64,000 nucleotides of DNA from a virus, in IMG/VR virus record IMGVR_UViG_3300035438_000341, positions 32,047 through 96,046 of that record. The stretch is one strand, 5' to 3'. The translations under genes were made by a program, and so were the position numbers. Each line of letters begins with the position of its first letter. Within the stretch, counting starts at the first letter, position 1. Positions 2,875-54,474 of the stretch are shown here, piece by piece. Under the pieces are notes generated by a model. It was not told the origin of the DNA. It was given only the letters and a program-made list of their open reading frames with translations, and did no database searches.

Positions 2875-3741
2875 ATGTCAAAACTAATAACAATAAGGTT
2901 AACACAAGTGTCACCATCTTCTGGACCATTCTCAATCTTTGATCAGCTTGGGAATGTGATAGCAGAAGGTGTACCTAGAGAAATACTCATTGGTGGGGTG
3001 AACTATACTGTAAATGATAATGTGACATCAGTTAAATTAAAATCTACAGGTAGTTGTAAGATTGAAAAAACAAATGAATTAAATGATATAACTGAACAAG
3101 AATACATTAGTATTAAAGTAAACATAACTATAACAGGATGTATATGGAGACATTTAACTAATATACAATTATACAATTCTTATTATGGTGCTACATATCC
3201 ATACATAATTGAATACCCATTTGCTTATAAGAATCAAGATGAAATTTTACAGAATGTAAAAGACTATACAAAGGCATATGAATATGTATCTATATCAGAT
3301 GGTGTGTTTAATGATAACACAAGAATAGAGACAAACAATAAATGGTTTACACATGCTATTCTATATAATGGACAACAGAGTTCTGGTGTTCTTAAACTAG
3401 TTGCTAAACCTCTTAATGATATGCGTGCATACATGCAATATCCAATATTAAATGCAGATAGTAAAACAATCACTTACACTAAGAGTGATAACTTCTATCA
3501 GTATAATACATTCTGGGCTCTTCAGAAAAGTTCTCAAGTTCCATTGTTTAATACAGGTTGTGAAAGCTTATCTATTGATAAGGTGATTAACCAAGCTAAT
3601 ATGGACTATGGATCTAGAAGTTTCAAGAAAGCTACACTAAGAGCAAAAGAACTTAAAATACGACATATACTTCAAGACAATTGTACAACGCACCTAGTGA
3701 GTCAATTCATAATTGCTCCTGCACAAATCTCATACAAGTAA
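2875..3741 (+). CDS. Muzzle/stabilisation protein C-terminal part, preceded by a small beta-rich domain
   Basis: IWRH..YNSYYG..YPYIIEY..FTHAILYN..QSSG resembles the C-terminal region that normally follows WISFHSY in crAss-type stabilisation proteins. Confidence 0.6.
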   Translation: MSKLITIRLTQVSPSSGPFSIFDQLGNVIAEGVPREILIGGVNYTVNDNVTSVKLKSTGSCKIEKTNELNDITEQEYISIKVNITITGCIWRHLTNIQLYNSYYGATYPYIIEYPFAYKNQDEILQNVKDYTKAYEYVSISDGVFNDNTRIETNNKWFTHAILYNGQQSSGVLKLVAKPLNDMRAYMQYPILNADSKTITYTKSDNFYQYNTFWALQKSSQVPLFNTGCESLSIDKVINQANMDYGSRSFKKATLRAKELKIRHILQDNCTTHLVSQFIIAPAQISYK

Positions 3742-15600: not shown

Positions 15601-18600
15601 TAGATGAGATAACTAAAAAATTAAACACTAGTAAAGAAAGAACAGCTAAAGCTCTTGAAGCATTAGAAGATCAACTTGCAAAAGAGAGCCTTACTAAGAA
15701 AGGAACTCCTAGAAAGAATCAAACTCCTGCAATGAAGAAGATAATCAATGAACTATCTTCTATACAAGCTACATTAAATAAAGAGAATGAACAACTATTA
15801 AGTGAGAAAGAAGAATTAGAATCTAACATACCTTTCTTTAAAGACTTCTTAGATAATCTTGAGTCTCTTCCTGAATCAGGTAGAGAGATGATTAAGTTAT
15901 TAAAAGATGATATTAACACTCTTGAGGACTTAATTGATATAACTAATCAAGCTATTAAAGATAATAGTAGTCTATTGAAACAAATAGAAGATGCATTTCT
16001 AAAAGCTGTTTCTATATTTAATGATTATATCAAAAGACTTCAACAAGAAAATCCAGGTGTACCATTATTTATAGATGACTTACAAGCTAATCTAGAAAGA
16101 GCATTAGGAGATGAAGGTGCACAATACTATATTAATAATAAACAGGGCATCACTACTCAAGTATTAGAACTAGAATCTGATATAAATGATTTCTCAGCTG
16201 AGTTAAAAATACCTGCATTAAATAAAAAAGCAGAAGAGCTCGTTAAAGATATAGCAGATTTAAAAGAAGGCTTAGATAAACTTATCAATGAACAAATTGC
16301 TAAGAGAGAAATATTAAATGCGTTTGAACAATTTGCAGAAGATGTAAAGAAACAAGAAGAAGAAGCTGCACAAATGCAACGTAATGTTACATTAGGACAA
16401 GAGCTTCTTGGTACATTAACAGGAAGTGTACAAAACTTCTTTGGTACAAAACCATATGAGCAAGAAGCTAAAAAAGATAAACTTACTGTTGTAGGAGCTA
16501 CTAAACCATTCACAGGAGATACTGTTGAAAGACCTCTTCCAGGATATGCTGCAAGAGTTAATCACTTTGGGACAAGAGTTTCTGATATGGATAATGTAGA
16601 TGATCTTAGAGGTGTTATTGTAACAGCTAATACAGAAGATCAAATACTTTCTGGATTAACAGAAGCGTTTCTTTCTGAAGATATAACAGATGCAAAAAGA
16701 AAAGAAGAAGTCAGAAAAGAAGTTATATTCTTAGTTGTAACAGAGAATGGACAACTTGTAGATAAGGATGGGAAACTTATTCCTGGAAAATCTGCAGATG
16801 AAACACAAGAAGCTTACAACAAAAGACTTTATGACAATGCTATATTCCAAGTGTTTCCTTCTGCTTCATTAGCTTATACAAAAGGAGATGTTGAAACAGG
16901 ATCAATGTTTAGAGACACTGTTCCTGAATATGAAAGAGAAAGTCTTAAAGAGCAATATAAAGCATGGAGAGATGGACAATTATCAAATACAACATTAGAT
17001 AAGAAAGGACAAAAGTTTAAAACATCTTTTGGTAATCTAGAGTTTGTTAAATATAAAAATGCAGATGGCACAACATCTGTAGATACTTCTGCAAGAACTT
17101 CTGCACAAGATGCTGGATTATTAGCTAAAGGTATACTTAATAGAGATGCTGTCATCACTGTTGCTACAACTAATGATGATAAGTCTGAAGGAAGTGTTTC
17201 TTTCAAGAGTCCTAAAGGTAGAGTGTTCTTACGTATACCAGGGCAAGGACTTGTTAGACTTTATAATAAAAAGTTTAATAAAACAGAATCAGAAACAATA
17301 TTTGATGCTATGTTAAACTTAGCTAAAAATGCTTCTGCGAATGGTTCATTATTCGGTAATGAAAAAGAAGAAGTTAATAAGAATATTTTAAACTGGTTAA
17401 AGAGCGTTGTATATTGGGGAATTGCAAAAGATAAAGAAGGAAACAGAAAACCTGCTGGATATAATAACATTTGGTTTGAAGATGTTATGGAAGATGGTAA
17501 ACAAGTTAAGAAGTTGTTTATGTCTGGTCTTCAAAAAGAATCTCAAAGATATTTTGACTTTACACCACAAGGACTTATAAATAGTAAACAAGATATTCTT
17601 GGATTGCTAGGACAAATGTATGCTAATACAGATGCTAAAAAAGTAAATATAGATACATACAATGCTCCCTACGATGAGATACTAAGTTTTGATAACCTAG
17701 GACTCCCTGTTACAAGAACATGGCCTAATTATCAAACATATTTATTGTCTGCAAACATTGTAGATAAAGATGGAAATGTTATAGGTAAAAGAACTGGAAA
17801 AGAAATTCCTCTTACAACACAAGTAAGACCTCTTACATCTGCAGAAGATACAAATAGAAAGGGTGTGTATTTCACATTGAATAGTTCAGTAGAATACACT
17901 GTACCTGCAGCTCCTATAGTTAAACCTGCAGTGGTGGTTACACCAGCACCAGTTGCTGCTACACCAACTGCTCAAGCTCCTGTAGCTCCCACAGCTTCAC
18001 CAGTAGTTCCACAACAACAACCTACACCTCCTGGACAATATAATTTAAATGGAGAAGCAGAAAATAGTAGAATGTTTGGTAATGGTGTAGGAGAAATAAG
18101 ATTTACATTCAATTCAGCAAAAGCAATTGAGTATATAAAATCTCTTTCTATAGATATATTTTCTATTCAAGGATTACTTCCTGCTGAAATATCTACAGCA
18201 TTTTTTAAGAATGACATCATGAATATAAATTCAGATGATGTAAAAATGAAAATTGGTCAGATAAAGGAAAACTTAAGAGATACTAACCCTGATGCAACTG
18301 ATGAAGAACTAACAGGTAAAGCTCTTAATATTGCTGTTAGTATGATATGGAAAGATGTTGCTCCACAAGTTGTAGGAGAAATGACTCCTGTTCAACCAGC
18401 AATAGCTGATGAAGCTCCAACATCTTTAGTAACAAGAATAAATGACACTATAACAAAAATATTTGAGTATGAATCATTATTTGATTTTAGTACAGATCAA
18501 CCAGGTAAAGTTGTTAAAGGAGAATTTATTCCTGATAATTTAGGATCTCAAATATTTGAAGCACTTAATAAATCCATTAAAGGAGAATTAGTAAAAACAG

Positions 18601-21600
18601 ACAAGGTAGAAGCACAAAAGTTATTTAAAGAATATGCTAAAGAAGTTCATCCAGATAAAAATACACAATCTAGTGAACGTCAAACTATAGCAGAAGCATT
18701 TTTTAAAGCAATGTCTGTTGCTAAAGAACAAGGTAGAGTAGATATATTAAATGAGTTAAAAGATAAATTTGATTTAGAAATAGCAGAAGTAACCACTGTA
18801 GTAAAAACTCCAATAGAAGAAGAAGAAGTAGTTACTCCTGAAAAAGTAGTTCCTGCAACTACACTTCCTGAAGGATTTATCAATCTAGATGATATAGAAG
18901 ATGTAGATGTTGATAGAAGTGAAATGAGAGTTGCACAAGCTATTGACAAACTAGATCAATTTAAAGCAGAGAACTGGAAGAAATTAGAAGAAGATTACAA
19001 TAAAATGCTTCCTAATGTTCCTTTATATAGAGTGAAGAACCTGATCAAAGGTACTAATGGTAGACAGCTTTGGGGTATGTTCCATGATGCTGCTGTATAT
19101 GTATATGAGAACGCAGAAGAGGGAACAGCTTACCATGAGGTGTTTGAAGCTGTATGGAAAATGTTTGCTGGACCAGCTCAGAAACAAGCTATTATTAATG
19201 AGTTCAAATCAAGAACAGGATCTTTTACTGATAGAGAAACTAGAAAGTCTGTAGAATATAAAAACGCCACTGCTTATCAAATCAAAGAACAATTAGCTGA
19301 AGAGTTTAGAGAAGCAGTTCTTTTTGATAAGTTAGGTAAACCATTAGAATCAAAAAGTTTAATAAGCAGATTGTTCTCTCAATTGATTGACGCTATTAAA
19401 GCTTTCTTTGTAGGACCTAGAGCTCAAATTAATACAAGAGAATTATTCAATAGAATTGGTAATGGATACTATGCTCAATTCAATCCATATGAAACACAAC
19501 TATCATATGCTAAGAAGGGTGTGATAGATATTGAAAATGCTCAAGCTAATCAAACTTCAGAAGGAAGATCAACAACAATCCCTGAGATTGAAATGCATGA
19601 CATTATTCAGCATATGACATTCTTGACATTGACTAAACTTTCATTAAACAATGAGAGTGTATTTACTGTTAATGATCAAAAAGAATCAGAATTATACCCA
19701 GCTCTTAAACTTGGTATATTAAAACTTCTTGCAGGACAAAAGAAATTAAATGATATATTAGTTACTGAAGGTAAGTCAACTTTAGAGAAAGTGACTAGAA
19801 TGAATAACAATCTTGATACACTATCATATAACATTCAAATGGAATGGGCTGAAATTACTGCCAATCATAAAGCACATTTGAAAACGTTTGATGTTCAGTT
19901 TGATGAGAATGATGAAGGTATATTAAACAGTGAAGAAAATACTGGTAGAGGAGAATTAGAAGCATCTAATAAAATTGATTCATATAGAAAAGCTAATGCT
20001 GCTTTGAAACTTGTATTGAGCACTATTCCTGTTACAGAAATGACAGGTGGTAAAATAGATTGGCTTCCTTCTTCTATAGGAGGAGTTACACTTATTCCTG
20101 CAGATCAGATACACATTGATTTAAAAAGTAAGTTACATAGTTCTATGGATATAGAAGATATGTTACTAGGTCTTAAAACAATGGCAGAGAATAATCCTAA
20201 TTACAATGCTTTATTTAGACGCTTAACTGGTAACTCTGCTAATCAAGGATTAGATATAACTACTATTCAAGAACATGACTTCCAATTAGCAGCAGCATTA
20301 TGGAAATCTATCAGTATGCAAAATCCTGATGTTATCACTGTGTTCCTTCAAGAAGATGGTGATGTAGTTGTAAGTAACTCTACACTTAGTAGTGCAGCTA
20401 AGCAAGCTAAAAAAGGGATGATTAATGATATAATATCTACATTAAAAGCAGATCAATCTAAGTATTTTAGATATGTACCAGCTACAGGTAGATACTATGC
20501 TAAAGATAATTTGAAAGCTTTAGAATTTGATGGTAGCGGTCTAAAGCAATATGTTGATTTTCTTAATTCAATTGGAATAGAATTTAATGAAAGAGACCTA
20601 GTAGATTTAAAAGCAGATCAACTTTCTGTATTTAAAAAATCAGTTGGATATATTAGAGAAGAACTTGCTAAGGTGGGAGATACAAAAATAGTAAAAGATG
20701 CAAATAATAATGATGTAGAAGAAGATGGTGGTATACGAAGTATCAGTACTAAAACATTAAATATTGATGGTAACTTATTTGAGTTAGCTATTGTAAAAGC
20801 TGTTATTGAAAATACAGAGTTTCAGTCTACATATTTTAACATTAATGGAGAGCGTACACAATCATTCATTGGTACCAATCTTATTAGTGCTTTACACAAC
20901 ACACTATCTAAACTAAAAAATATAGAGGATCTACAAAACGATCCTAGACATAAAAGATTTGCTTACTTAGCAGCAGGCAATGATGTATTTGTACAAGGAA
21001 GTCAAATGTTGAAAAAGATGTTTGATATAGTTGGAACAGATAGTACAGGAAAACGTAGAGCTGGTACAGAAGATATTGGAAAACCTGTTATTGTAGATGG
21101 TATAGTAGATGAAGAAACTGGTAAGAAAAAAGAAGCTTCTAAAGTTTCATACAGACAAAGACTTATACAGGAGTTAAATCTTAACCTATCTGGTATATTC
21201 ATGAACCTTGTTCCTGGAGATGCTTCATTGGAACATGCTATTAGAATGTACAATGCAAAAGATCCGTTTGTTTCAGAAGATCAATTACTCAACAAAGGCT
21301 ACTTAGATATATTCAAAGACTATTTCATGTCTGAAGTGGAACTAGTTAAAGAAAATAGAAATACAGCAAAAGATAATGGAAAAGATCTTCGTTTCTTTAA
21401 AGCTATTCTAGGAGATGAGGCACATAAAAAAATTGCTTCTAGAATTAAAAAAGACACTGATGCTGAACAATTATATCAAGATAATAAAGAAGCTATAAAT
21501 TCTGCAGTGGAGGCATTCATTAAACAAGAAACAGAAGATACAGAAGACTTATTAAGATCATATGATATTGTAACAACAGAAGATGGACAAGTTAGTGTAG

Positions 21601-24600
21601 ATAAGGTGAGCTTATTTAAAAAAGGAGAAGCAGTTACACAAGCTGGTTTAAATACAAAATTAAAAGCATTAAGTATTAACTACATGATAGCTAATATTGA
21701 AATGCACAAAATTTTGTATTCAGATCCTTACCAATATAATGATGAGCTTAAACGTATCAAAAACTTTACATCTCCTGGACAACCATTAGTTCCTAGTTCT
21801 CAAAAGATAGATGCTAGACTTAATGAAATTTATAACAAAGGATTTGAACCTGATGATATTGGTTATATAGATATGACTCAAGATCATTTTAAATCTGTAA
21901 CACTTGCGGATGTATTAAGTACTAATAAGAATTTAGGATATGATGTTCCTTATGAGGAAACAGATGGTGGAGGATTAATTACACTTAAAGCAACTAAAGT
22001 ATTTAAACTTAGAGCTGGTACATGGACTTCTAATAATGAAAAACAATATAGATTTGATATAGCGTTTGAAGAATTATTTAAATCAGGTGCTAGTGAAGAA
22101 ACACTTAAGAAATTCTTAAAAGGTAATCCAGGTATTAAAGATACATACACACCTGTTAAACCTATTGTTAGAGGTAATAAAGACAATGGTAGAACTTATA
22201 ATGATATTGTTCTTCACAAATTTGCACTTGCTCCTATATCATTTAGAATTCTTTATGAAATGAATCCTGATTCTAATGCAATCAAATTGTATAACAAGAT
22301 GCAAGCAGAGAATATAGATTATGCTGTGTTTGCTTCTGGTAGTAAAGTGGGAACAGAAAAGATATCTCCTTTATATAATGCAAAAGGTGAGTTTGACAAT
22401 ACACCATTTCAAGATGCCAAAGAGAAAAAAGGTAATTTAGCTGACAATGTTAAGAGAGCAGTAACTAATATACCATTCACTATTGTAGCTGTACAATCAG
22501 AAGTTCCTTCTAAAGATGTTCCATCTGTTACACAGGGATCTCAGATTACTAAACTTGCTACAATGGATTATTTAGAATCTGGTGTACCTGTAGATTTTAT
22601 GGCTGGTAAAGAATTTGAAGATAGATTTCTTGCATGGTTAGATCTTGATGATAAATCAAGTTATAACAATGGTACAAACATCTATAATGAAATTGTAAAC
22701 AATCAAAAACTTTTAGAAGCTAGAATCGAAGATGCTGTAGAGTCTTTATACAAAAAACTTGGTATCAAAGAAACTGTAAATGAAGAAGGAAATAGAGAGT
22801 GGAGAATAGAAGACAGAGATAAATTAGTTAAAACTCTAACTGAAGAGATTGGTAAAAGAGAAATCAATTACAACATTACAGATGCATTTGAAGGATTTGT
22901 CAAAGGAGATGTTATATTAGAAGCTACTCCTATATACCAACAAGTTAGAAACATTCTTTATTCTATAGCTGATAAAACTATTGTACGTCCTAAAATATCA
23001 GGAGGTATGAAGGTGCAAGTTTCTTCTGCATTATTAGAATCTGTAAGAGCAGAAGGAAAACCTGTATTAGATGATAAAGGTAAGCCAACATTTAATAAAG
23101 ATGGTAGCCCTAAACTTTCATATGAATCTACTGAGTTAGAGTTCTATAAGAATGAAGATGGTAAGAGAGTGTGTGAGATAATGATTGGTAGATGGTTTAA
23201 ATCTAATAAATCAGATGCTGACCTAATGAATTACTTCAATAACACAGATGAAGGTAAGAAAGAACTTGCAGCTATTACAGGTGTAGCATTTCGTATTCCT
23301 ACACAGAAACAAAACTCTATTGATGTATTCAAGATAAAACAATTTCTTCCTAAAGACTTTGGTGATTCAGTGATTATTCCTTCAGCTCTTGTTAAGAAAG
23401 CAGGATCGGATTTTGATATTGATAAATTGTCAATCTATCTAAAAAACTTATTTACAGAAAATTCTGGAAAACTAAAAAGAATTCCTTTTTATGGCACAGG
23501 AGAAAATGCTAAAAAAGAATTTGGAAAATTGTATGATGTTGGATACTTTGATAACTACATCTCACAGATGAAAGATTCACTATCTTTAGAAAGTGCTGAA
23601 GATAGATTAATGGAAAGTATGTTCCCTGAAGAATATTCTTTACAAAGAGAAAATGTTATAGATACTTTATATAAAAAATCTTTAGAGAATGCATATATAC
23701 AATCTTTAGAAAACCTTATATCTCATCCATTAAACTATGACAACTTAGTTAAACCTAATGACGCTAAACCCTTAAGTGATCTATCAGACGCTATTCAAAA
23801 AGAAATGGGTTATGGTAAAGCAGATTTTGGTAATGTAGGTAATATGTTGAGTAGAAGATTTATGTCTAATCTAAGACAATCTTTTGTTGGTGGTAAACAA
23901 GCATTAGGTATTGCTGCTCAAGGACAAGTAGGACATGCTCAAAGACAACGTAGTGTTACATATATAGATGTAGATAGACTAGAAGGAGATTTGGTTGATG
24001 AACAAGATAAAATTATTCTTGGAACTAAATCAGATTCTACTATATTTGCTACAGATACAAACATTAACTTTCAAGAGTACAACTCTGCAGTGATTAATGG
24101 TGTAAAAAGACCAATGCTTTCATGGATTAAAAATAAAGCAGGAGAATACATTTCAGATATTAATGGGATGTTTATTGATGGATATGTGGATATCTCTAAA
24201 GGTGACTGGATTATAAAACTTGGAGCAACTACTAATACAGCTTCTACATGGTTGTTTTTAATTGATCTTGGTGTGCCTATTGACACTGTAGGATATTTCA
24301 TGAATCAACCTATCATTAGAGATTATTTACGTTCTATTGAGAACAAAGGATATTCTTGGTTATACATAGAGGATATGATAGAAGATAAACTTGCAGAATA
24401 TAGTCCTAGTAAAGAGTTTATTAAATCAGGAACATCTGTAAAAGGAATTCCTGCAGAAGCAGATTTATTTAAAATGCTTAAATATAATAATGCAGCTCCT
24501 AAATCAGACATGACAGATATTCAAAAACTTCAACAACAATATATGTTGAAAGAGTTCTTGAAATATGCTAAGATGGCTTCACATATGTTTAATGTATCAC

Positions 24601-26069
24601 AAGCTTCAAACTATGATACAGCTAACATCAATGATCCATATTTAGTATTTAAGAAAATGATTCAATTAGATAAAGCTAAAAAAACTATCATCTCTTCTGT
24701 AGATGATATTATTTCAGGATCATTCATAAAAGAATTAAAAAATAAAATATTTGACTATAGAGATGCATTCTCTGAAATATTAATGTCAGATAAAGGAAAC
24801 GTTAGACAAGTGCTACAAAATGTTTTAGAACCTTATACAGATATGTCTGATAGAGATTTTGTTAAGCTTTCACAAAAAGCTGTAAATGATCTATTTGATT
24901 GGGCTGTACAAACTACATTCAAAGAGGGTGTACCTGTAAACACAAAGGTGGCTAGAATATTATTAGGAACAGAGACAGAAAAATCTGCAGCTGAACAAAT
25001 TATTGATTATAGAGATTCAATATTAGGTAATCCTGTAAAAGGAATAGCTCCTAAGCCAGATCATAAGTTATTCAATAACATCATTCTTAATTCACTATCT
25101 ATAGATCAAAACGATAAAAATGGTGGTAGAAAAGGTGCTCCTATCAATCTTATATTAGATAACAGAGAAAACAAAGTGTCTGATCAAAACTTAACTATAT
25201 ATGGATTCAATGAGTTAAGAGAAACACTGAAAGAAGAAAACAATTTGAAACTATATGGTAAGTTAACAAGACTTGCTTTATTACAATCAGGGTTAACTAA
25301 TTCTCCTATATCATTCACTAACCTTCTTCCTTATAATGATTTCAAAGGATTGTACAATGAAACCTTGTCTATATTAGAAAAACTTCCTAACTTAGCACAG
25401 TTTCAAGAATTAAATATTTTTGAAAGAAACAATTGGAACAATAGTGATGTAGTTACATACAAAAGAGCTACATTATATTTTGGAGAAGATAAAGATGGTA
25501 CTAAGTATGTATCTAATCTAGATAGAGATACATTAGTTAAACCATTGAAAAAAGCAACAAACAATGGTATTATTCCTAAGTTAGTTGGGATTAGTCCTAT
25601 GTCAGAAGCTGGTAGATCAGATTTCATTGTTTATTCTTACGAGGATGTTATTTCTTCAGAACAAAGAATTCTTAGAAGAAAAACTGGTAACACACAACAT
25701 CAACATAAAATGTTAATGCAGAAGGTGTACACAACAGATGCTAATAACAAAAGAGTTCCTCTTCTTCACATTACGGAAAAGAATGGAAAGGTTTACACTA
25801 AGTATGTATACAAAGCAATCAATGCTTGGGGAGATTCATTCAGAGCACAAGAGTTCTACACAACAAATCAACAATCAGTTCTTGATAATGGATTTGATAA
25901 AGTGAACGAAGTGAAAGATGATGTCATTGTAGATATATATAAAGGTGGTGCTACTACTACTGCTGTAGAAACTGTAAGTGAAAAACCTGAAAGTGTTACA
26001 CAAGAAGAATGGGATGCTTCAACTCCTAAAGAAAAGGCAGAAATAATAAGACAACAAAAAGAATGTTAA
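12642..26069 (+). CDS. Giant virion polyprotein containing the crAss-type virion RNA polymerase, a J-domain and a degenerate zincin motif
   Basis: GSDFDIDKL catalytic motif (DFDID at 23409-23423) preceded by RIPTQ, as in phi14:2 gp66; HPDKN from 18648; HEVFE from 19134; 4475 aa. Confidence 0.9.
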   Translation: MAENNLESIDKAQNGAAAVNPVPTQLNVETPMLDRLDLENQFGGYTAPGIPEPLPTYASPDNVYPDAVPLTSNLGGGGDDGSLESLYSSLRTPTSTKPGGSIMRTLSEVSSNRYDNFVPGDYNNEDAYAQNQSWTSKMINGVGKGLLLTGTTFLQGTVGMVNGLVQWGKDGRFASFYDNDFNRNLDEVIRKAEDVAPNFYTDVEKNASWYSPDYFLTGNFLWDGVVKNMGFAAGAYLTGGVYSAGLKGLAALPGASRLLSMGKVAEAVAKSEEMLLKLDKGTEAYGKIKALSDSYLRTYNILDKGHRAVVAGLSTSGEAGFEAFQNLNTFRNQKIQEFKDKNNGLEPKGADLDNINRSADSVGNASFLGNVALLSATNYIQFPKILGSSYKAEKGIINNVTRGIGDITTDAAGKFVAKTPKNKVLNTINKIRPYTFSASEGFEEGAQFSIGVGVNDYYNKKYNNEPTSWLDALSTGITEGFLSDEGAKNVLIGGLSGAIMMGKSKFQEGRETSKNTAEAITQFNNYQLSDFTKETKDSVNRGTVLQEEREQLLKEGNITESKDKETDYIINYLTPRIKFGRFDLVKAEIDDYRTLASTNDGFNELVKEEKALPTDTREAFLDRLNKFEQTANNVKSLYQTLNLRYSGLANADGTPMYPTSVIDKMLYATTKISDYEQRIPELTSQLIGSVDNIDEILQDVSEGKLDTFNTAVANLQASKLINKEELIEALDDAAFMTAKRDVLLKQYDGLKNNPEKYVAVEPTITDSEGNVLDENGNIVPKETVIVKVKDGKTGQVVDKKIEIGTEYVLGKIVKYDKDGNEVIQAPTLSILADNGDGTFKIKDKNGIRNVSAETLEGYQLSKLSDITKDKKKNYAYINRNNTFSNKLIKDANGNPVIGRLEYSANKDRLTFVYKNEKGQVIRSEVWNNMFKAQGTYKEAIITQVGEVTAEAAQATEEFVNAVTTISQKLQTRNNIILDLYDKSVKRLDEITKKLNTSKERTAKALEALEDQLAKESLTKKGTPRKNQTPAMKKIINELSSIQATLNKENEQLLSEKEELESNIPFFKDFLDNLESLPESGREMIKLLKDDINTLEDLIDITNQAIKDNSSLLKQIEDAFLKAVSIFNDYIKRLQQENPGVPLFIDDLQANLERALGDEGAQYYINNKQGITTQVLELESDINDFSAELKIPALNKKAEELVKDIADLKEGLDKLINEQIAKREILNAFEQFAEDVKKQEEEAAQMQRNVTLGQELLGTLTGSVQNFFGTKPYEQEAKKDKLTVVGATKPFTGDTVERPLPGYAARVNHFGTRVSDMDNVDDLRGVIVTANTEDQILSGLTEAFLSEDITDAKRKEEVRKEVIFLVVTENGQLVDKDGKLIPGKSADETQEAYNKRLYDNAIFQVFPSASLAYTKGDVETGSMFRDTVPEYERESLKEQYKAWRDGQLSNTTLDKKGQKFKTSFGNLEFVKYKNADGTTSVDTSARTSAQDAGLLAKGILNRDAVITVATTNDDKSEGSVSFKSPKGRVFLRIPGQGLVRLYNKKFNKTESETIFDAMLNLAKNASANGSLFGNEKEEVNKNILNWLKSVVYWGIAKDKEGNRKPAGYNNIWFEDVMEDGKQVKKLFMSGLQKESQRYFDFTPQGLINSKQDILGLLGQMYANTDAKKVNIDTYNAPYDEILSFDNLGLPVTRTWPNYQTYLLSANIVDKDGNVIGKRTGKEIPLTTQVRPLTSAEDTNRKGVYFTLNSSVEYTVPAAPIVKPAVVVTPAPVAATPTAQAPVAPTASPVVPQQQPTPPGQYNLNGEAENSRMFGNGVGEIRFTFNSAKAIEYIKSLSIDIFSIQGLLPAEISTAFFKNDIMNINSDDVKMKIGQIKENLRDTNPDATDEELTGKALNIAVSMIWKDVAPQVVGEMTPVQPAIADEAPTSLVTRINDTITKIFEYESLFDFSTDQPGKVVKGEFIPDNLGSQIFEALNKSIKGELVKTDKVEAQKLFKEYAKEVHPDKNTQSSERQTIAEAFFKAMSVAKEQGRVDILNELKDKFDLEIAEVTTVVKTPIEEEEVVTPEKVVPATTLPEGFINLDDIEDVDVDRSEMRVAQAIDKLDQFKAENWKKLEEDYNKMLPNVPLYRVKNLIKGTNGRQLWGMFHDAAVYVYENAEEGTAYHEVFEAVWKMFAGPAQKQAIINEFKSRTGSFTDRETRKSVEYKNATAYQIKEQLAEEFREAVLFDKLGKPLESKSLISRLFSQLIDAIKAFFVGPRAQINTRELFNRIGNGYYAQFNPYETQLSYAKKGVIDIENAQANQTSEGRSTTIPEIEMHDIIQHMTFLTLTKLSLNNESVFTVNDQKESELYPALKLGILKLLAGQKKLNDILVTEGKSTLEKVTRMNNNLDTLSYNIQMEWAEITANHKAHLKTFDVQFDENDEGILNSEENTGRGELEASNKIDSYRKANAALKLVLSTIPVTEMTGGKIDWLPSSIGGVTLIPADQIHIDLKSKLHSSMDIEDMLLGLKTMAENNPNYNALFRRLTGNSANQGLDITTIQEHDFQLAAALWKSISMQNPDVITVFLQEDGDVVVSNSTLSSAAKQAKKGMINDIISTLKADQSKYFRYVPATGRYYAKDNLKALEFDGSGLKQYVDFLNSIGIEFNERDLVDLKADQLSVFKKSVGYIREELAKVGDTKIVKDANNNDVEEDGGIRSISTKTLNIDGNLFELAIVKAVIENTEFQSTYFNINGERTQSFIGTNLISALHNTLSKLKNIEDLQNDPRHKRFAYLAAGNDVFVQGSQMLKKMFDIVGTDSTGKRRAGTEDIGKPVIVDGIVDEETGKKKEASKVSYRQRLIQELNLNLSGIFMNLVPGDASLEHAIRMYNAKDPFVSEDQLLNKGYLDIFKDYFMSEVELVKENRNTAKDNGKDLRFFKAILGDEAHKKIASRIKKDTDAEQLYQDNKEAINSAVEAFIKQETEDTEDLLRSYDIVTTEDGQVSVDKVSLFKKGEAVTQAGLNTKLKALSINYMIANIEMHKILYSDPYQYNDELKRIKNFTSPGQPLVPSSQKIDARLNEIYNKGFEPDDIGYIDMTQDHFKSVTLADVLSTNKNLGYDVPYEETDGGGLITLKATKVFKLRAGTWTSNNEKQYRFDIAFEELFKSGASEETLKKFLKGNPGIKDTYTPVKPIVRGNKDNGRTYNDIVLHKFALAPISFRILYEMNPDSNAIKLYNKMQAENIDYAVFASGSKVGTEKISPLYNAKGEFDNTPFQDAKEKKGNLADNVKRAVTNIPFTIVAVQSEVPSKDVPSVTQGSQITKLATMDYLESGVPVDFMAGKEFEDRFLAWLDLDDKSSYNNGTNIYNEIVNNQKLLEARIEDAVESLYKKLGIKETVNEEGNREWRIEDRDKLVKTLTEEIGKREINYNITDAFEGFVKGDVILEATPIYQQVRNILYSIADKTIVRPKISGGMKVQVSSALLESVRAEGKPVLDDKGKPTFNKDGSPKLSYESTELEFYKNEDGKRVCEIMIGRWFKSNKSDADLMNYFNNTDEGKKELAAITGVAFRIPTQKQNSIDVFKIKQFLPKDFGDSVIIPSALVKKAGSDFDIDKLSIYLKNLFTENSGKLKRIPFYGTGENAKKEFGKLYDVGYFDNYISQMKDSLSLESAEDRLMESMFPEEYSLQRENVIDTLYKKSLENAYIQSLENLISHPLNYDNLVKPNDAKPLSDLSDAIQKEMGYGKADFGNVGNMLSRRFMSNLRQSFVGGKQALGIAAQGQVGHAQRQRSVTYIDVDRLEGDLVDEQDKIILGTKSDSTIFATDTNINFQEYNSAVINGVKRPMLSWIKNKAGEYISDINGMFIDGYVDISKGDWIIKLGATTNTASTWLFLIDLGVPIDTVGYFMNQPIIRDYLRSIENKGYSWLYIEDMIEDKLAEYSPSKEFIKSGTSVKGIPAEADLFKMLKYNNAAPKSDMTDIQKLQQQYMLKEFLKYAKMASHMFNVSQASNYDTANINDPYLVFKKMIQLDKAKKTIISSVDDIISGSFIKELKNKIFDYRDAFSEILMSDKGNVRQVLQNVLEPYTDMSDRDFVKLSQKAVNDLFDWAVQTTFKEGVPVNTKVARILLGTETEKSAAEQIIDYRDSILGNPVKGIAPKPDHKLFNNIILNSLSIDQNDKNGGRKGAPINLILDNRENKVSDQNLTIYGFNELRETLKEENNLKLYGKLTRLALLQSGLTNSPISFTNLLPYNDFKGLYNETLSILEKLPNLAQFQELNIFERNNWNNSDVVTYKRATLYFGEDKDGTKYVSNLDRDTLVKPLKKATNNGIIPKLVGISPMSEAGRSDFIVYSYEDVISSEQRILRRKTGNTQHQHKMLMQKVYTTDANNKRVPLLHITEKNGKVYTKYVYKAINAWGDSFRAQEFYTTNQQSVLDNGFDKVNEVKDDVIVDIYKGGATTTAVETVSEKPESVTQEEWDASTPKEKAEIIRQQKEC

Positions 26070-38531: not shown

Positions 38532-38552
38532 ACCCTCTATATGAGGGTTTTT
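38530..38552. terminator. Bidirectional intrinsic terminator
   Basis: AAACCCTC-TATAT-GAGGGTTT followed by a T-run, between convergent genes. Confidence 0.7.
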
Positions 38553-41509
38553 ATTTCTGCTATCACCATCTCTGGAGTTATACTAGTCTGACATTCAAAC
38601 TGTCTATCTGTACCTTTGTGAACAGGGCACCAATCCCAATCTCCTTTATCAAACTTATATTGTGGATCATTCCAGCATCCATGACATACATTTGTGTTAA
38701 CTGGTCTATGGCATGAAAACTCATGATCTTTATCAGTGAAGTTAGAGATCATTATCACTGGTACATCTAACCCCCAAGCTAACCAACTTAGTCCACTAGA
38801 TAGTCCTATAAAGAATTCACTTTGTGTTATCCATTCTATTGTACTACCTATTGATTTATCAATTAATGCATCACAATTGTCAAATGGATTATTTTCTAAT
38901 GATACATTTTTCACTATATATCCTTGACCATGTAAGTAATTAATCACTTCTTGCCAAGCTTCTCTGGTCCAGAACTTACACCCAGCTGTACTATTTGTAG
39001 CTATTGTAACTAGTTTATAGTTTGCTTTAAGTCCTGAGTTATGTATTCTAGGTTTGATTTCTTTATAAGGAAGTCCTAGAATATTTGTAGCTGTTTGCTG
39101 AAGAGGAATTGTATTAGGAAGAACAGGTTCTTTATTATCATTATAGAACCAACCAAGTTTATACATTGCATACAAATCATTAACTACAGACCCTGGTTCT
39201 ACAAATTCCAACATTGGATATTCTTTTTCAAATAAGAAGTTCTTATATGTACTTACAATCACTTCACAGTTATGTAGACATCTAAACTCTTCTACATAAG
39301 GCATCCAAGCTATAGTATCACCTAAAGAAGAACTATCAAAAGCTATATAAACTCTTCTACTCTCTAGATTTAGTATGTTATTATACACCTCAACACCATC
39401 CTTATACACTATAGTTTGCCACCTAGTGAAGTATTCTCTGTTAAGTTTTATCCAATGGTTGCACTTTATTGTATCATAATGAACTAACTTTTGTGTTTCA
39501 AAATCATGAAACTCTACATCAAATGTGCTATCACTGGTTCCTGTTATTTCAAGGAATGGTTGTCCAACAAAATTTTGTATGATATTATAATCATTTATAG
39601 GCGTTTTGTTCGGAATAACGGACATTGCTTTCTCATATAATGATATGTGATCTTTAGCAAAATCATCAGTTGTATTAGTTATTGGTAAATCATATTGCTT
39701 ACCATAGTTTAATAACATTTCTAATTGAGTTTTTGGTTCTTTGATATCTACTATGTAATCAGTGAACATATCTTTATACTGAGGAAGATTTCTAGCAAGG
39801 ATAGGTAACCCATATCCAATAGCTTCTCTAAGTACAAGAGGATTACATTCCCACGTGCTGTTAAACATAAATGCATCTGCAGCTTTCATAAATCTATATA
39901 TGTCATCTTTTTCTCCCCATACAGTAACATTATCAGGTAGATTTTTCATTAGTGGTTTCCAATAGTCTTCAAAGTTCCCAGCTTGATTACCTATAAAGTG
40001 AAACTCTACATATGGTAGAGATCTAGCTATCTCAATTCCTTCTCCTTGATTCTTTCCTTTGGTCCATAGTCCTACATTAACTACATGCTTTTTTCTACTA
40101 TCCATTCCTAGATATGCTTTACTGAACAGTTTGTCTTTTGGAGAAACAATCTGTTTGTCTATAGGGAACTCAATCACTTGTTTGTAACCATCTAGGTTAG
40201 CAAATGTATCTAAGTGATAAGGACTGCAGAAAGCATATGCATCAGGTGTAAATATCTTCTCAGAAGGATTGAAAGATACATCATGACATGTCTCAACTAT
40301 TCTATATTTTCTATCAGGAGAATACAATCTTGTCATCATCTTTCTATCTAGTCTCTCAGACATCTCATCTATATGTATGATGTCTGGTTTAAACTCTTCT
40401 ACAGCTTTGAAGATTCTCATCTTATCTTCATTCAGTGTATATAAGCCTGTAAGCTTTATAATCTCATCTCTCTGTACAACATAATCTTTGCTGTAACATT
40501 GATATTCTACCACTTGAATAGATACATTTGGCAGAGTTTGCAACGCTTGTATTCTTTTAAGAAGGAATGCAGGCATACCACCTGTAGATAGGTGAGGAGC
40601 AACAAATAATATTTTTAGTTTAGACATTGGTTTAGACATTTTAGACATTAGTTTAGACATTTGTACTGGATCTTTCTCTCCATGTAGGAATAGTAATTGT
40701 TCTTTACACTCTGGTAACCTGAACCAATTGTTAACATGTTTACCCCAGTTATCTTCATTATATATCCTATCTAGCTTGTCAAGACCAGCATTAGTGTATA
40801 TATAAGGAAGACCCTGATGTATATTATATTTCCACAATAGCACATTTACTATTGTCTCTTCATGATAGGGAGCATAGATTTGTGGATTCTCAAGTATAGT
40901 GGGATGAGTGCACATCCAATACCACTCATCTAGAAAGTTAATAGTGTTCTTACCAGCCACAAAGTAACCAGTTTGTCTATATCTCTCTCTCACATATTGA
41001 TTTACATTGAATAATTCACATGCTGGATGTTCTAGTGTAGTGGAGAGATCTTCTTTACTATCAGCTCCTCCTCTTCCATTGTTATGCAGATAGTCATATA
41101 TACCTTCTACAAAATATGGATGTCCACATTCAGTGTTGTACATATCAAATATACTATCTACATACTGAGTAGCTACACTGTCAGAATCTACGTAACATAT
41201 TGTATTAGCAAAGTGCTCAAGAGCATGCTTAACTATAAGAGGCCTTTTTATTAATAGATTGTATATTCTTGAATCATCTCTATCTATATAAACTTCTTGT
41301 GATACATCTTTAATATCACACTCCCAGTATACAGTATTAGCTCCAGGAACCTCTCTGTGATCATTTAACAGGTACACTGTGATTGGTATATTGCTAAACT
41401 GTTGAATGCTCTCTACAGCCATGCATACAGTGCTGTAATAAGATGCATTTGCATATAAAACGTACATTTTATCTGCTTTTATATGTTGATACGTATAACT
41501 ATCGGACAT
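38537..41509 (-). CDS. Tri-domain glycosyltransferase: GT-A (DxD) + GT4-like GT-B + autotransporter O-heptosyltransferase (TibC/Aah-like)
   Basis: YVDSD; LFVAPHLSTGG..KGKNQ..ECNPLVLREAIGYG.P; SLGDTIAW..FIGLSSGLSWLAW..CHGCW..WCP.H..FEC. The ATG at 41509 is preferred because a promoter box overlaps the TTG at 41530. Confidence 0.85.
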   Translation of the reverse strand: MSDSYTYQHIKADKMYVLYANASYYSTVCMAVESIQQFSNIPITVYLLNDHREVPGANTVYWECDIKDVSQEVYIDRDDSRIYNLLIKRPLIVKHALEHFANTICYVDSDSVATQYVDSIFDMYNTECGHPYFVEGIYDYLHNNGRGGADSKEDLSTTLEHPACELFNVNQYVRERYRQTGYFVAGKNTINFLDEWYWMCTHPTILENPQIYAPYHEETIVNVLLWKYNIHQGLPYIYTNAGLDKLDRIYNEDNWGKHVNNWFRLPECKEQLLFLHGEKDPVQMSKLMSKMSKPMSKLKILFVAPHLSTGGMPAFLLKRIQALQTLPNVSIQVVEYQCYSKDYVVQRDEIIKLTGLYTLNEDKMRIFKAVEEFKPDIIHIDEMSERLDRKMMTRLYSPDRKYRIVETCHDVSFNPSEKIFTPDAYAFCSPYHLDTFANLDGYKQVIEFPIDKQIVSPKDKLFSKAYLGMDSRKKHVVNVGLWTKGKNQGEGIEIARSLPYVEFHFIGNQAGNFEDYWKPLMKNLPDNVTVWGEKDDIYRFMKAADAFMFNSTWECNPLVLREAIGYGLPILARNLPQYKDMFTDYIVDIKEPKTQLEMLLNYGKQYDLPITNTTDDFAKDHISLYEKAMSVIPNKTPINDYNIIQNFVGQPFLEITGTSDSTFDVEFHDFETQKLVHYDTIKCNHWIKLNREYFTRWQTIVYKDGVEVYNNILNLESRRVYIAFDSSSLGDTIAWMPYVEEFRCLHNCEVIVSTYKNFLFEKEYPMLEFVEPGSVVNDLYAMYKLGWFYNDNKEPVLPNTIPLQQTATNILGLPYKEIKPRIHNSGLKANYKLVTIATNSTAGCKFWTREAWQEVINYLHGQGYIVKNVSLENNPFDNCDALIDKSIGSTIEWITQSEFFIGLSSGLSWLAWGLDVPVIMISNFTDKDHEFSCHRPVNTNVCHGCWNDPQYKFDKGDWDWCPVHKGTDRQFECQTSITPEMVIAEIKTLI

Positions 41510-41527
41510 AGGTTTGATTTTTAAAAA

Positions 41528-41535
41528 CAAAGATA
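41528..41535 (-). promoter_or_regulatory. -7 promoter box (TATCTTTG) for the glycosyltransferase gene
   Basis: TAnnTTTG on the minus strand, 18 nt upstream of ATG 41509. Confidence 0.6.
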
Positions 41536-46564: not shown

Positions 46565-47716
46565 ATGCCTACATTTATAAAAGCTGGATTTTGGGAACAA
46601 ACATGTAAGAATTGTAAAGGATACAATGGTTGGTTAAACCTTGATCAATTTACTGGTCAATCAGGTACCTCTGGAACTAGTGGATCTTCAGGTCCTCAAG
46701 GTGCTCAAGGAGTACAAGGAACACAAGGAATACAAGGGGTCTCTGGAACATCTGGTAGCTCTGGTGTTGCTGGTGATAGATATCAAACTACATCTACAAC
46801 AACTTTTGAATTAGGAGTGAGTACAACTCTTACTGTTGAACCAGGATTAGCTTATTCAACAGCACAAGATGTACTTATATCGTACAATCTTGCTAATCAC
46901 CAAGTGAGTCAGGTAGTAAGTTATGATCCTTTAACAGGTGTTTTAGTTATTGGACCTCCTACCACTGTAACTGGATCAGGTACATATAGTGTATGGACAA
47001 TTAATTTAGATGGTGCTGCTGGAGGAGATGGATCTTCTGGTACTTCAGGGATTAATGGTACATCAGGAACTACAGGAGCACAGGGTGTTCAAGGATTACA
47101 AGGTGTTGCTGGAAGTAACGGTACCAGTGGAACTACTGGAACTAGCGGAACATCTGGTACAAGTGGAACTAGTGGATCTTCAGGAATAAGTAATGCTACA
47201 GCATCTTATGGTTTATATGCTCAAACAGCTGATTCAACCCCTGTAACTAACACTGCTGTAGAAACAACAATAATAGGATCAGGAGTTGGTACATTAACTG
47301 TTCCTGCAAATGCATTTTCTATTGGAGATTCTTTTACATGTGCGTTAGATGGTATACTTTCTTGTACGAGTTCCTCTACAGTGCATATTAGAATAAAAAC
47401 AGGAGCTGGTGTACTTCTTGCAGATACTGGAATAATTGATTTAGCTGCAGCAACTAATAAAAATTGGATAATAAATTTATACTTTACAATTAGAACATTG
47501 GGAGCAACTACTGTTGCATCTGTTTCATCTGGAGGATTATTTTCTTATATTAGAAATGGAGGAACACAATTTGAAGGTTATAATTTAAATACAGTTAATA
47601 GCACTACATTTGATACTACTATAATTAATACATTAGAAATCACTGCACAATGGGATACAGCTATTATAGATAATTCAATAATAACAAGAAACTTTACATT
47701 AACTAAAGTATATTAA
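46565..47716 (+). CDS. Fibre/decoration protein with SGT and collagen-like GxQ repeats
   Basis: SGTSGT and QGAQGVQG tracts; GD.Y.TTS..W.INL.GAAGGDGSSG domain shared with the 30948 gene. Confidence 0.7.
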   Translation: MPTFIKAGFWEQTCKNCKGYNGWLNLDQFTGQSGTSGTSGSSGPQGAQGVQGTQGIQGVSGTSGSSGVAGDRYQTTSTTTFELGVSTTLTVEPGLAYSTAQDVLISYNLANHQVSQVVSYDPLTGVLVIGPPTTVTGSGTYSVWTINLDGAAGGDGSSGTSGINGTSGTTGAQGVQGLQGVAGSNGTSGTTGTSGTSGTSGTSGSSGISNATASYGLYAQTADSTPVTNTAVETTIIGSGVGTLTVPANAFSIGDSFTCALDGILSCTSSSTVHIRIKTGAGVLLADTGIIDLAAATNKNWIINLYFTIRTLGATTVASVSSGGLFSYIRNGGTQFEGYNLNTVNSTTFDTTIINTLEITAQWDTAIIDNSIITRNFTLTKVY

Positions 47717-52152: not shown

Positions 52153-52761
52153 TTATTTATCGTACATATAATCAAGGATTTCTCCTACTAATTCACTTCT
52201 ATGATAATCATTTATCAAGATTTCTTTAACCTTATTTAAAATCTTATACTTAGCATTTAAAGATAAACATTCTTTATATCCAGGAAATTTTACTTTTGGA
52301 ACATACTTGAATTCTTCTCTTAATTGTGCTAATATATTTTTCTCTATAATTGTTCCTTCTTCAACTGTACAAGGAAATATTAAATAAGAAGCAATATTAT
52401 ATTTACTTTTTGTTTTAATATTTCTATGTCTATTATGTACTTCTTTAGATATTCCTACTTTAATAAAAGATTCATCATCTGAGTATAGATTTATAATATA
52501 CAGATCTATAGGTTTATTTTTATTCTCATCTAACAAAGAGTCTTTCATATTATAATTAAAGTTATCTTCTTCAGAACATATTCTACAACCATGATTTCCT
52601 ACATGATCATTAGGTGTTTGGTAAAAACTACCATGTCTTTTACATATAATTTCTACCTTTGTCTTATTATTCAAATATAATACTTTTGAGTAATCATACT
52701 TATCACCATGTAGTCTTATACTAATTTCTACAAATTCTTCTTTAGTTTTTCTTTTAGGCAT
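52153..52761 (-). CDS. Putative homing endonuclease (DUF723-like Zn module + T5orf172/GIY-YIG-like domain)
   Basis: YDYSKV.Y..IIC..HG.F.Q..H..GC..C; LYII..FIKVGIS..R. Confidence 0.75.
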   Translation of the reverse strand: MPKRKTKEEFVEISIRLHGDKYDYSKVLYLNNKTKVEIICKRHGSFYQTPNDHVGNHGCRICSEEDNFNYNMKDSLLDENKNKPIDLYIINLYSDDESFIKVGISKEVHNRHRNIKTKSKYNIASYLIFPCTVEEGTIIEKNILAQLREEFKYVPKVKFPGYKECLSLNAKYKILNKVKEILINDYHRSELVGEILDYMYDK

Positions 52762-53413
52762 CTTTTTCTAAAAAATCAATAATACTTGTTAATATTGGAT
52801 TTCTATGATTAGATTTTAATGTTTTATATCCAACTAATCCTGATTCCTCAAGTTTCATTGTATTATAGATACAACTATTTTTACCTAATCTTTTATCAAC
52901 TTGTTGCTTAGATCCACAGAATATCATTTTACTTCCTTTACCAAGTCTAGTTAAGATTGTTCTAAAATCACTATATTCCATATCCTGATACTCATCAACT
53001 ATAACTACTGCATCTAGAAAAGTACAACCTTTAGCAACTTCAACAGGCATAATTTTTATCATTCCTTCTTTTTGCATTTTCTCTGTAATTTCTTTACCTT
53101 GACATACTTCTAAATTTTGAATTATAGGAAATACCCAAGGAGCAAGTTTTTCTTCAAGTTCCCCAGGCAAAGCTCCTAATTTATTAGGTAACATTGGTCT
53201 AGTTATCCAGATATTATTAAATTGTTTTTTTCTAAAAGAAGTTAGTGCTGTATGTACTGCAGCTAATGATTTTCCTGAACCAAAGTCTCCATGTAAAAAA
53301 CATACATCATACTCATGAAATAACTTCACGAATTCTTTCTGTTCCTCATTCAAGTCTACTTTTAATTTAGGCTCTGTTTTAAGAGGTCTTTTTTCTTTGT
53401 TTTCTACTTTCAT
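52754..53413 (-). CDS. phoH: PhoH-like ATPase
   Basis: G.FGSGKS; ITRP; LG.LPG.LEEK; G.TF..IVDE.Q; LTRLG..SK; NHRNP. Confidence 0.9.
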   Translation of the reverse strand: MKVENKEKRPLKTEPKLKVDLNEEQKEFVKLFHEYDVCFLHGDFGSGKSLAAVHTALTSFRKKQFNNIWITRPMLPNKLGALPGELEEKLAPWVFPIIQNLEVCQGKEITEKMQKEGMIKIMPVEVAKGCTFLDAVVIVDEYQDMEYSDFRTILTRLGKGSKMIFCGSKQQVDKRLGKNSCIYNTMKLEESGLVGYKTLKSNHRNPILTSIIDFLEKDA

Positions 53414-53808
53414 AAATTGTATTTAAGTTTTAATTGATTACGTCTTTCATTGACCTCCTCATACTTATACATATCGTTTTCAACGTTAGAATGCTCCTCT
53501 AGGGTCAAAAGTATAATATTTTCTTCATCTAAACAAGCTTCTGGGTATTTTTCTTTTGGTAAAATGTGATGGAAGTATGTAGACATAGCTTCTTTGCCTA
53601 GATAGGCACCACTCACTTCTGAGTGGTGCGTTCTCTTTTTCCATATAGATAAGAAGAAATCTCTTTGTATGATAACTCGTTCACTACCTCCCTTTTTAGG
53701 ACTTACTGACTGCTTTATCATACCAGATTGCTTCATCTGAGTTCTAGGTTTATGCTGAAAGCAATAGTCGCTATCAGAGTTCTTCCCACAAGTTTTACAA
53801 TGACCCAT
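53410..53808 (-). CDS. HNH-like (NinG-type) nuclease
   Basis: HHILPK.KYP..ENIILLT..EH; N-terminal CxxC..C..H. Confidence 0.6.
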   Translation of the reverse strand: MGHCKTCGKNSDSDYCFQHKPRTQMKQSGMIKQSVSPKKGGSERVIIQRDFFLSIWKKRTHHSEVSGAYLGKEAMSTYFHHILPKEKYPEACLDEENIILLTLEEHSNVENDMYKYEEVNERRNQLKLKYNL

Positions 53809-53962
53809 TCAATGCGTTAGTTAATGAATAGGTATTTGATGAACCTGTACTAATATTACTCAGGTTTATGTAAGGTAATCCTGTGTTAATACTTTGTCTA
53901 GTTAACGCTCCATTACTACTAGTGTGACTAGTACCAGACCATAATGGAGCTGCTAAAAATTT
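53795..53962 (-). other. Putative -1 programmed ribosomal frameshift signal and 53-codon extension
   Basis: Slippery site A AAT TTT (53962-53956) immediately before TAG; 5-nt spacer; 9-bp stem GCTCCATTA/TAATGGAGC; -1 frame open to TAA at 53797-53795. Confidence 0.7.
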
Positions 53963-54153
53963 CTAATTACTATTTGAACATTGTCTGGATCTCCAGCATA
54001 TTCTTCAGGAATCTCTCTTGTAATCTTAAATACAAGATCTTTCTCTGACTTAGCTAAAGCTGTTGTAAGCTCAATAATAATTTTTGAATCTGCATACGAT
54101 CCATCTTTGTCACGTTCATGCAGTATCACTGCATATTGAAATAATTGTTTCAT
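53953..54153 (-). CDS. Small hypothetical protein ending at the slippery site
   Basis: 66 aa, MKQLFQYAVIL..IPEEY..VQIVIRNF. Confidence 0.8.
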   Translation of the reverse strand: MKQLFQYAVILHERDKDGSYADSKIIIELTTALAKSEKDLVFKITREIPEEYAGDPDNVQIVIRNF

Positions 54154-54171
54154 AATGTTTATATTTAATTG

Positions 54172-54474
54172 TTAATCTTTTACAAATTGACCGTTAATCA
54201 TAACTCCTGTACGTTTAGCAATTACATTGTATGCACTCTCTAAACATGATTCTAGACTCAATCCTTGCATTTCTGCTTGGATGATGATTGTAACTAGGAT
54301 GTCACCTAGTGCATCAACTATTTCATCTTTGTTGTTATCAAATATAGCATCTGATAGTTCTTGCACCTCCTCTAATGTTTTATCACATTGTCTAGCTGGT
54401 GTACCATTTTGAAAGATTCCTTTCTGTGTAGCCCATGCTATAACAAGGGCCTCTAATTCATTGTAACTTTTCAT
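54172..54474 (-). CDS. MazG-like nucleotide pyrophosphohydrolase
   Basis: Q..K..EEV.EL..DALGD.LVT..AYN.I..R.G.M.NG.FVK. Confidence 0.85.
   Translation of the reverse strand: MKSYNELEALVIAWATQKGIFQNGTPARQCDKTLEEVQELSDAIFDNNKDEIVDALGDILVTIIIQAEMQGLSLESCLESAYNVIAKRTGVMINGQFVKD

Follow-up and report, generated by a model that had tools for sequence, protein, structure and literature searches.

A small gene on the minus strand of a 64,000-nucleotide stretch of viral DNA (IMG/VR virus record IMGVR_UViG_3300035438_000341, positions 32,047 to 96,046; hereafter the window, with coordinates counted from its first letter) is best explained as a programmed -1 ribosomal frameshift cassette, a reading to which we assign a probability of roughly 0.9 from sequence comparison. 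Its 66-codon open reading frame (ORF) would give rise to two proteins: a short form of 66 residues and, following a backward slip of one base at its last two codons, a long form of 119 residues. A slippery heptamer, a stop codon directly behind it, a hairpin and a conserved open -1 frame are present in relatives of the gene, some of which also carry the same domain and tail fused in a single frame.

The zero-frame ORF has 66 sense codons (53956..54153, minus strand, or 54153..53953 with its stop) and encodes the short isoform. Its 3' end reads ATT AGA AAT TTT TAG and holds the heptamer A_AAT_TTT (53956..53962, minus strand), which follows the pattern X_XXY_YYZ in the zero frame. This pattern is the classic tandem-slippage motif (PMC5009743). 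The zero-frame stop, TAG, abuts the heptamer (53953..53955, minus strand), and a TAG in the -1 frame lies directly 5' of it (53963..53965, minus strand); the tail frame can therefore be entered at the heptamer only. Upstream of the heptamer, the -1 frame of the window is open for just 2 codons. On the 3' side, a 5-nt spacer (TAGCA, 53955..53951, minus strand) leads to a hairpin predicted by RNAfold (53907..53950, minus strand), a candidate stimulator at a spacing within the range of about 5-9 nt 3' of the heptamer. Its outer stem is 9 bp long (GCTCCATTA / TAATGGAGC, 53950..53942 / 53915..53907), and its inner stem is 7 bp long and closed by a CAC loop (TACTAGT-CAC-ACTAGTA, 53933..53927 / 53923..53917), with an 8-nt internal loop between the two. 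RNAfold assigns -22 kcal/mol to a 96-nt stretch here (z = -2.55), and equally good folds arose in 2 of 200 shuffled sequences. No Shine-Dalgarno-like upstream stimulator is evident at the window cassette, and there is no Rfam covariance-model match in 53600..54300 at an E-value of 1 or less.

The -1 frame continues for 53 codons (53798..53956, minus strand, LAAPLW...NALNGSL), with a translation from 53956 of LAAPLWSGTSHTSSNG...YSLTNALNGSL. Close to its end it encodes the tail motif SNTYSLTNA (53813..53839, minus strand; family pattern [ST]N.Y[ST]L[ST].A), and it closes with a TAA (53795..53797, minus strand) within the opening codons of the gene that follows, which encodes an HNH endonuclease. 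It thereby covers the whole 144-bp gap and overlaps the HNH-gene ATG at 53808. The list of ORFs in the window contains no ATG, GTG or TTG in this frame that gives an ORF of at least 30 residues. At the off-frame stop rate of the source genome (0.109 per codon), at least 53 codons would stay open with a probability of about 0.002. An earlier note on this DNA, made from its letters alone, had described the ORF ending in AGA AAT TTT TAG with its A AAT TTT heptamer, the 9-bp stem after 5 nt with an inner 7-bp stem, and a 53-codon -1 frame without an ATG that fills the gap and overlaps the next start. The sequence (53962..53956 for the heptamer), the fold and the translation agree with this description throughout, with the stem coordinates exact. 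They also agree with its prediction of products of 66 and about 119 residues, as 66 + 53 codons predict a long form of 119. The predicted trans-frame tryptic peptide is NFLAAPLWSGTSHTSSNGALTR.

Relatives of the gene were gathered as loci (L001-L102) by scans of viral and metagenome contigs. From these we extracted 54 distinct cassettes, each defined as the heptamer plus 160 nt, of which 53 have complete tails. At the protein level, a word-based search returned 114 near-length homologues, with the C-termini RNF (98), RPF (8), KNF (2) and RSF (2), while the matches in a search for longer proteins were gene calls extended at the N-terminus only. A profile search run exhaustively over 1.84 billion representatives yielded 339 family members (representatives at 50% identity); among the 150 members listed, 134 end in F and 106 in RPF. 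No relatives were found in 185,579 prokaryote genomes, nor by tblastn in 50,697 phage records, and scans of viral contigs with the in-frame fusion and RSF-variant proteins found no contigs encoding them.

The heptamer is AAATTTT in 47 of the 54 cassettes, CCCTTTT in six and TCCTTTT in one, making it a perfect X_XXY_YYZ in 53/54. The remaining T_CCT_TTT matches the U_CC heptamer variants that the recoding literature accepts (PMC5009743). In every cassette the heptamer is directly followed by a stop codon (TAA 33, TAG 20, TGA 1). The earlier note had proposed looking in homologues for a heptamer at the stop, for C-termini such as RNF or RPF and for a hairpin, and this search was positive in all 54 distinct cassettes.

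Codon choice at this site is more restricted than the encoded residues. C-termini of the form R/K-N-F are encoded as AGA, CGA or AAA followed by AAT TTT: the codon before AAT ends in A in 47/47 cassettes, and asparagine is AAT in 47/47 and never AAC, compared with an AAT share of 69% among the asparagine codons of those loci. R-P-F C-termini are encoded as CGC CCT TTT. CGC occurs in 6 of the 7 cassettes with a penultimate proline; it makes up 3.9% of the arginine codons in those loci, where AGA is the common arginine codon. A distant locus (L099) ends in Ser-Pro-Phe, encoded as AGC CCT TTT, which again creates C_CCT_TTT. The final phenylalanine is TTT rather than TTC in 54/54. This joint switching of X_XXY, with its synonymous positions fixed, is what slippage of two transfer RNAs (tRNAs) in tandem would predict, and goes beyond what the protein sequence by itself calls for.

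Two other accounts of the interrupted frame were rejected. Reassignment of the stop codon is ruled out since the relatives use all three stops (TAA 33, TAG 20, TGA 1), and a homopolymer sequencing error is ruled out since an identical T5 run recurs across 54 independent assemblies.

The same cassette and the same product would also be expected if only the tRNA-Phe slipped, moving from U_UUU to UUU_U with the stop unread in the A site, or if the slip took place in the E and P sites after translocation. The invariant core of the site is TTTTT plus a stop, with the stop abutting the heptamer in all 54 cassettes, and among the 150 listed family members 134 end in F, including some with RAF, RSF, RDF or KPF ends, which preclude a perfect X_XXY. 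In E. coli, a stop placed just 3' of the heptamer modulates -1 shifting, which also counts in favour of a single-tRNA slip. Such a slip needs no joint change from A_AAT to C_CCT using a rare CGC or an AGC, yet the first four positions of the heptamer are synonymously constrained. We therefore consider this variant unlikely, though worth keeping in mind, and favour a programmed frameshift in which both tRNAs would slip.

The hairpin is also common to the family. A stem is present in 54/54 cassettes, with its first paired base +4 to +7 nt from the heptamer (+6 in 30 of them). The stems are 7-15 bp long and enclose loops of 5-112 nt. These variable loops misalign the 3' arms and made a consensus from MAFFT and RNAalifold unusable, so the stem was assessed by a duplex analysis of each locus with null and swap controls. 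The mean duplex energy of the real arms is -14.4 kcal/mol, compared with -7.4 kcal/mol (standard deviation 2.7) at 3240 random positions in the same loci (Mann-Whitney p = 3e-32), and 45/54 cassettes fall inside the best 5% of their own-locus null. When each 5' arm was paired with downstream sequence from other loci instead of its own 3' arm, the energy weakened from -14.4 to -9.6 kcal/mol. The arms themselves are diverse, with 35 distinct 9-nt 5' arm cores, and stem positions +6, +7 and +11 to +14 each covary through 3-5 types of Watson-Crick pair.

The constrained heptamer and the covarying hairpin also bear on slippage during transcription, in which RNA polymerase would add one U within the T5 run and so bring domain and tail into one frame. 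The T5 run is invariant, and judging from the sequence, one inserted U would yield an identical fusion protein. However, productive transcriptional slippage calls for runs about 7-9 long or longer, next to which T5 is short, and it leaves unexplained both the constrained AAA or CCC and a covarying hairpin held at a fixed spacing of 5-6 nt. We regard it as very improbable next to programmed ribosomal frameshifting.

In each of the 53 complete loci, the -1 frame runs on past the heptamer without a stop for 45-108 codons (median 60), whereas the two remaining frames have median open lengths of 11.5 and 8 codons. At the stop rate of the source genome (0.109 per off-frame codon), the chance of at least 45 open codons is about 0.006 per locus. 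The tails consist of 15% T, 15% S, 13% N and 9% G, in line with the S/T/N-rich tail that the earlier note had predicted for the window. They are nearly unalignable (19% column identity), and only their two ends are alike: L-x-x-P opens at least 90% of them, and [ST]N.Y[ST]L[ST].A, followed by 1-7 residues, ends all 53 complete tails, with the Y and L invariant (alignment A3). The core [YF][STNFY]L[ST] lies near the end in 53/53 complete tails, and the tail motif occurs a single time in the 96-kb genome. The middle of the tail appears to evolve almost freely, as a disordered linker would.

A further motif, GN[VI]GIGT[ST]xP, stands just before the end motif in the otherwise unrelated tails of six loci (L009, L013, L035, L043, L070 and L003). 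It resembles one that is widespread among the fibre-like proteins that Bacteroidota phages encode.

Could the gap be non-coding instead, with the hairpin serving as a terminator, processing site or protein-binding site and the open frame an accident? The hairpin is stable, and standard gene calling counts the region as intergenic. A terminator scan of the minus strand did not call the hairpin terminator-like: it has no U-tract, the stem being followed by GTTAACTAGAC. Moreover, an accidental frame would not be open in 53/53 loci at a probability of about 0.002-0.006 per locus, the peptide motif is conserved in the -1 frame only, and relatives contain in-frame fusions. We find this account barely credible.

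The tail could also be a gene of its own, which ribosomes would translate through non-canonical initiation or through termination and reinitiation after the 66-codon ORF. Its frame is indeed conserved as coding sequence and begins exactly where the upstream gene stops. However, none of the 54 cassettes has an ATG, GTG or TTG in the -1 frame between the last upstream stop and the heptamer, and there is no start codon near the beginning of the tail. Ten tails have none of these codons at all, and elsewhere the first is found at codon 2 to 66; L-x-x-P precedes any start. Independent initiation would also have no need of a conserved heptamer, and the in-frame fusions tie the tail to the domain. 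A separate gene is thus highly improbable, and a programmed frameshift remains the better account of how the tail would be translated.

The fusions are found in 9 of the 150 listed family members, distant relatives that continue in the same frame beyond the C-terminus of the domain for at least 14 residues. Most of these continuations finish in the tail motif or in a form still recognisable as it. P0130 ends in ...TGTYTLTSAITN, P0147 in ...YDYTLTKTL, P0139 in ...TTYTITNTQS and P0169 in ...GGSYFNAADALAGNL, while P0132 ends in ...SNSYTLTSNVSNEKDPIT and contains ...SNSYTLTSNVS.... Further in-frame fusions are P0141 and P0248/P0270. P0139 and P0270 are each found on 4-5 contigs. These natural fusions show that the domain plus tail is a real protein and that the tail belongs to this domain.

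AlphaFold2, given a 24-sequence alignment (A1), predicts the 66-residue domain confidently as beta-beta-alpha-beta, with a predicted local distance difference test score (pLDDT) of 89.6. In a structure prediction of the natural fusion P0132, the same domain has a pLDDT of about 95 and the tail falls below 50; the tail is accordingly predicted to be disordered. Neither the domain nor the tail matches anything in Pfam, PHROGs, PADLOC or a PDB sequence profile. The matches from Foldseek (PDB, BFVD) and a wide VIA search were limited to small alpha/beta folds of a generic kind (PurS, eL20, phi29 p6, YkzG) at Z of 6.2 or less, and the ESM Atlas contained only unnamed viral clusters. A word search with the P0132 tail matched P0132 alone. 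The tail motif would most likely serve as a short docking peptide for a partner.

Taken together, we propose that most ribosomes would stop at the TAG and release the 66-residue beta-beta-alpha-beta domain. A fraction would be held up by the hairpin 5 nt downstream while tRNA-Asn and tRNA-Phe occupy AAU UUU, a pause to which the abutting stop codon probably adds. These ribosomes would slip back by one base onto AAA UUU, read UUA (Leu) as the next codon and translate 53 codons in total. The resulting product of 119 residues would consist of the domain and a disordered S/T/N-rich tail ending in SNTYSLTNA, and the cassette would fix the proportion in which the tail-less and the tailed isoform are made. 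We infer the slippage itself from these features, along with whatever efficiency it has, its tandem rather than single-tRNA mode and the role of the tail.

A more elaborate version of this proposal is speculative, and we think it rather unlikely. The invariant stop behind the heptamer may itself belong to the switch, with the slip occurring while the ribosome awaits a release factor, such that the isoform ratio would track termination capacity or the state of the infected cell. Through [ST]N.Y[ST]L[ST].A, the tailed form would dock, in competition with the short form, onto a partner from the host or the phage that acts in nucleotide or DNA metabolism. If true, Bacteroidota phages would possess a non-structural regulator whose isoform ratio is set by frameshifting and senses termination.

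Several observations weigh against the frameshift proposal. In one lineage (loci L089-L092, ~1501-1713), the gene ends in AAA AAA TTC TAA without a slippery heptamer, tail ORF or hairpin, and the next gene begins 14-15 nt later. This is a natural 'short form only' state, and the long form is not needed universally. The C-termini RAF, RSF, RDF or KPF of some family members mean that the heptamer cannot be perfect there. In the tail, substitutions between close relatives are distributed over the three codon positions as 125/93/141, a weak third-position excess, so that coding constraint is evident at the two ends of the tail only. At the first of these ends, the conserved proline codon of L-x-x-P sits inside the stem, which makes constraint on the RNA and on the protein inseparable. 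Finally, heptamers with a U-rich A site are weaker than A_AAA_AAG in E. coli.

Documented programmed frameshifts of tailed phages lie almost entirely in genes for tail assembly chaperones, with a small number in capsid or tail genes (PMC10885494, PMC5009743). One chaperone case, G/GT of phage lambda, resembles the proposed cassette in that ribosomes shift by -1 close to where a short ORF ends, giving a short and a C-terminally extended isoform with a common N-terminal part. The arrangement of lambda G/GT and its counterparts in many tailed phages is conserved across diverged phage proteins, and the fixed isoform ratio is thought to be the point of it (PMC5009743). The differences are considerable. 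The cassette gene does not lie between the major tail and tape-measure genes but beside genes for MazG, a deoxynucleoside monophosphate (dNMP) kinase and RecA, and it has no match to a tail assembly chaperone family in Pfam or PHROGs. Its site combines A_AAT_TTT or C_CCT_TTT with a directly adjoining stop and a hairpin whose arms covary, and the added part is a predicted disordered tail rather than a folded domain. In phage T7, a -1 shift at a U-rich site near the zero-frame stop of gene 10 adds a C-terminal extension to a minority of the product (10A/10B). The 10B extension is about 50 residues long. Gene 10 encodes the major capsid protein, whereas the gene described here encodes a 66-residue domain within a DNA-metabolism block and has a local hairpin as its putative stimulator. 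The X_XX part of the T7 site is G_GU (PMC5009743). With this context absent and no homology found, the cassette gene probably lies outside the tail-chaperone and capsid frameshift families.

Outside tailed phages, the heptamer of the RPF branch is shared with NS1' of flaviviruses of the Japanese-encephalitis group, which combines Y_CCU_UUU with a 3' structure. The NS1' site has a short spacer to this structure, a pseudoknot that acts as the stimulator. As NS1' belongs to a eukaryotic RNA virus and is made by eukaryotic ribosomes, the likeness is a mechanistic analogy only and not homology. E. coli dnaX (tau/gamma) and the insertion sequences IS3/IS911 are bacterial examples of a -1 shift on X_XXY_YYZ with a 3' stem-loop that yields two products per gene. 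They differ in using A_AAA_AAG together with an upstream Shine-Dalgarno-like stimulator, and the dnaX shift shortens its product. Bacteroidota make little use of Shine-Dalgarno sequences.

We found no description of this cassette family in the literature searched on frameshifting in crAss-like phages (Crassvirales), nor in reviews of phage frameshifts. It would add a non-structural example to programmed frameshifting in phages. Standard gene callers cut the family at about 66 residues and leave an apparent 'intergenic' gap of 150-300 bp, so that recognising the cassette would correct the annotation of many metagenomic phage genomes. The two heptamers, 35 stem sequences, in-frame fusions and tail-less lineages also form a natural mutational series for dissecting -1 frameshifting on low-Shine-Dalgarno ribosomes, and the partner of the conserved tail peptide could reveal the role of a widespread small protein.

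The window makes up the right-hand two thirds of its source, a single contig of 96,046 bp with 32.8% GC from an uncultured phage, and the cultured phages that match it best in the phage collection have Flavobacteriia as hosts. The cassette gene lies in a minus-strand block in the order RecA, dNMP kinase, MazG, cassette gene, HNH, PhoH, T5orf172-like ORF and thioredoxin, the first four of which make up a nucleotide-metabolism block. The HNH endonuclease gene (53410-53808, minus strand; PHROG 144, E = 2e-6) is directly 3' of the cassette, and the T5orf172-like ORF (52153-52761, minus strand) is a weak Pfam match. Seven relatives with long flanks were tabulated: MazG is directly upstream of the gene in five of them, and RecA, dNMP kinase and MazG are all upstream in two. 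The genes downstream vary among relatives (HNH, thioredoxin and two other unnamed families), and their flanks contain no conserved downstream partner gene. HNH copies are found at differing places in relatives, consistent with mobile nuclease genes. Within the HNH gene of the window, and antisense to it, lies a terminator-like hairpin with a 10-bp stem (6 GC) and a T-rich tail (53606-53629, plus strand).

The large structural genes are on the plus strand at 1-38 kb. A single ORF of 4475 codons in this region (12642-26069, plus strand) has no PHROG match at an E-value of 1e-5 or less, and the window contains no tRNA genes. A 997-residue protein (38537-41530, minus strand) matches Glycos_transf_1 (E = 3.5e-11) and has a weaker heptosyltransferase-like Glyco_transf_9 region; from these matches, the phage encodes glycosyltransferases. 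Collagen-like sequences occur twice: a 383-residue protein (46565-47716, plus strand) contains collagen triple-helix repeats (Pfam E = 6e-15), and the ORF at 30948-32816 matches collagen-like tail-fibre PHROGs.

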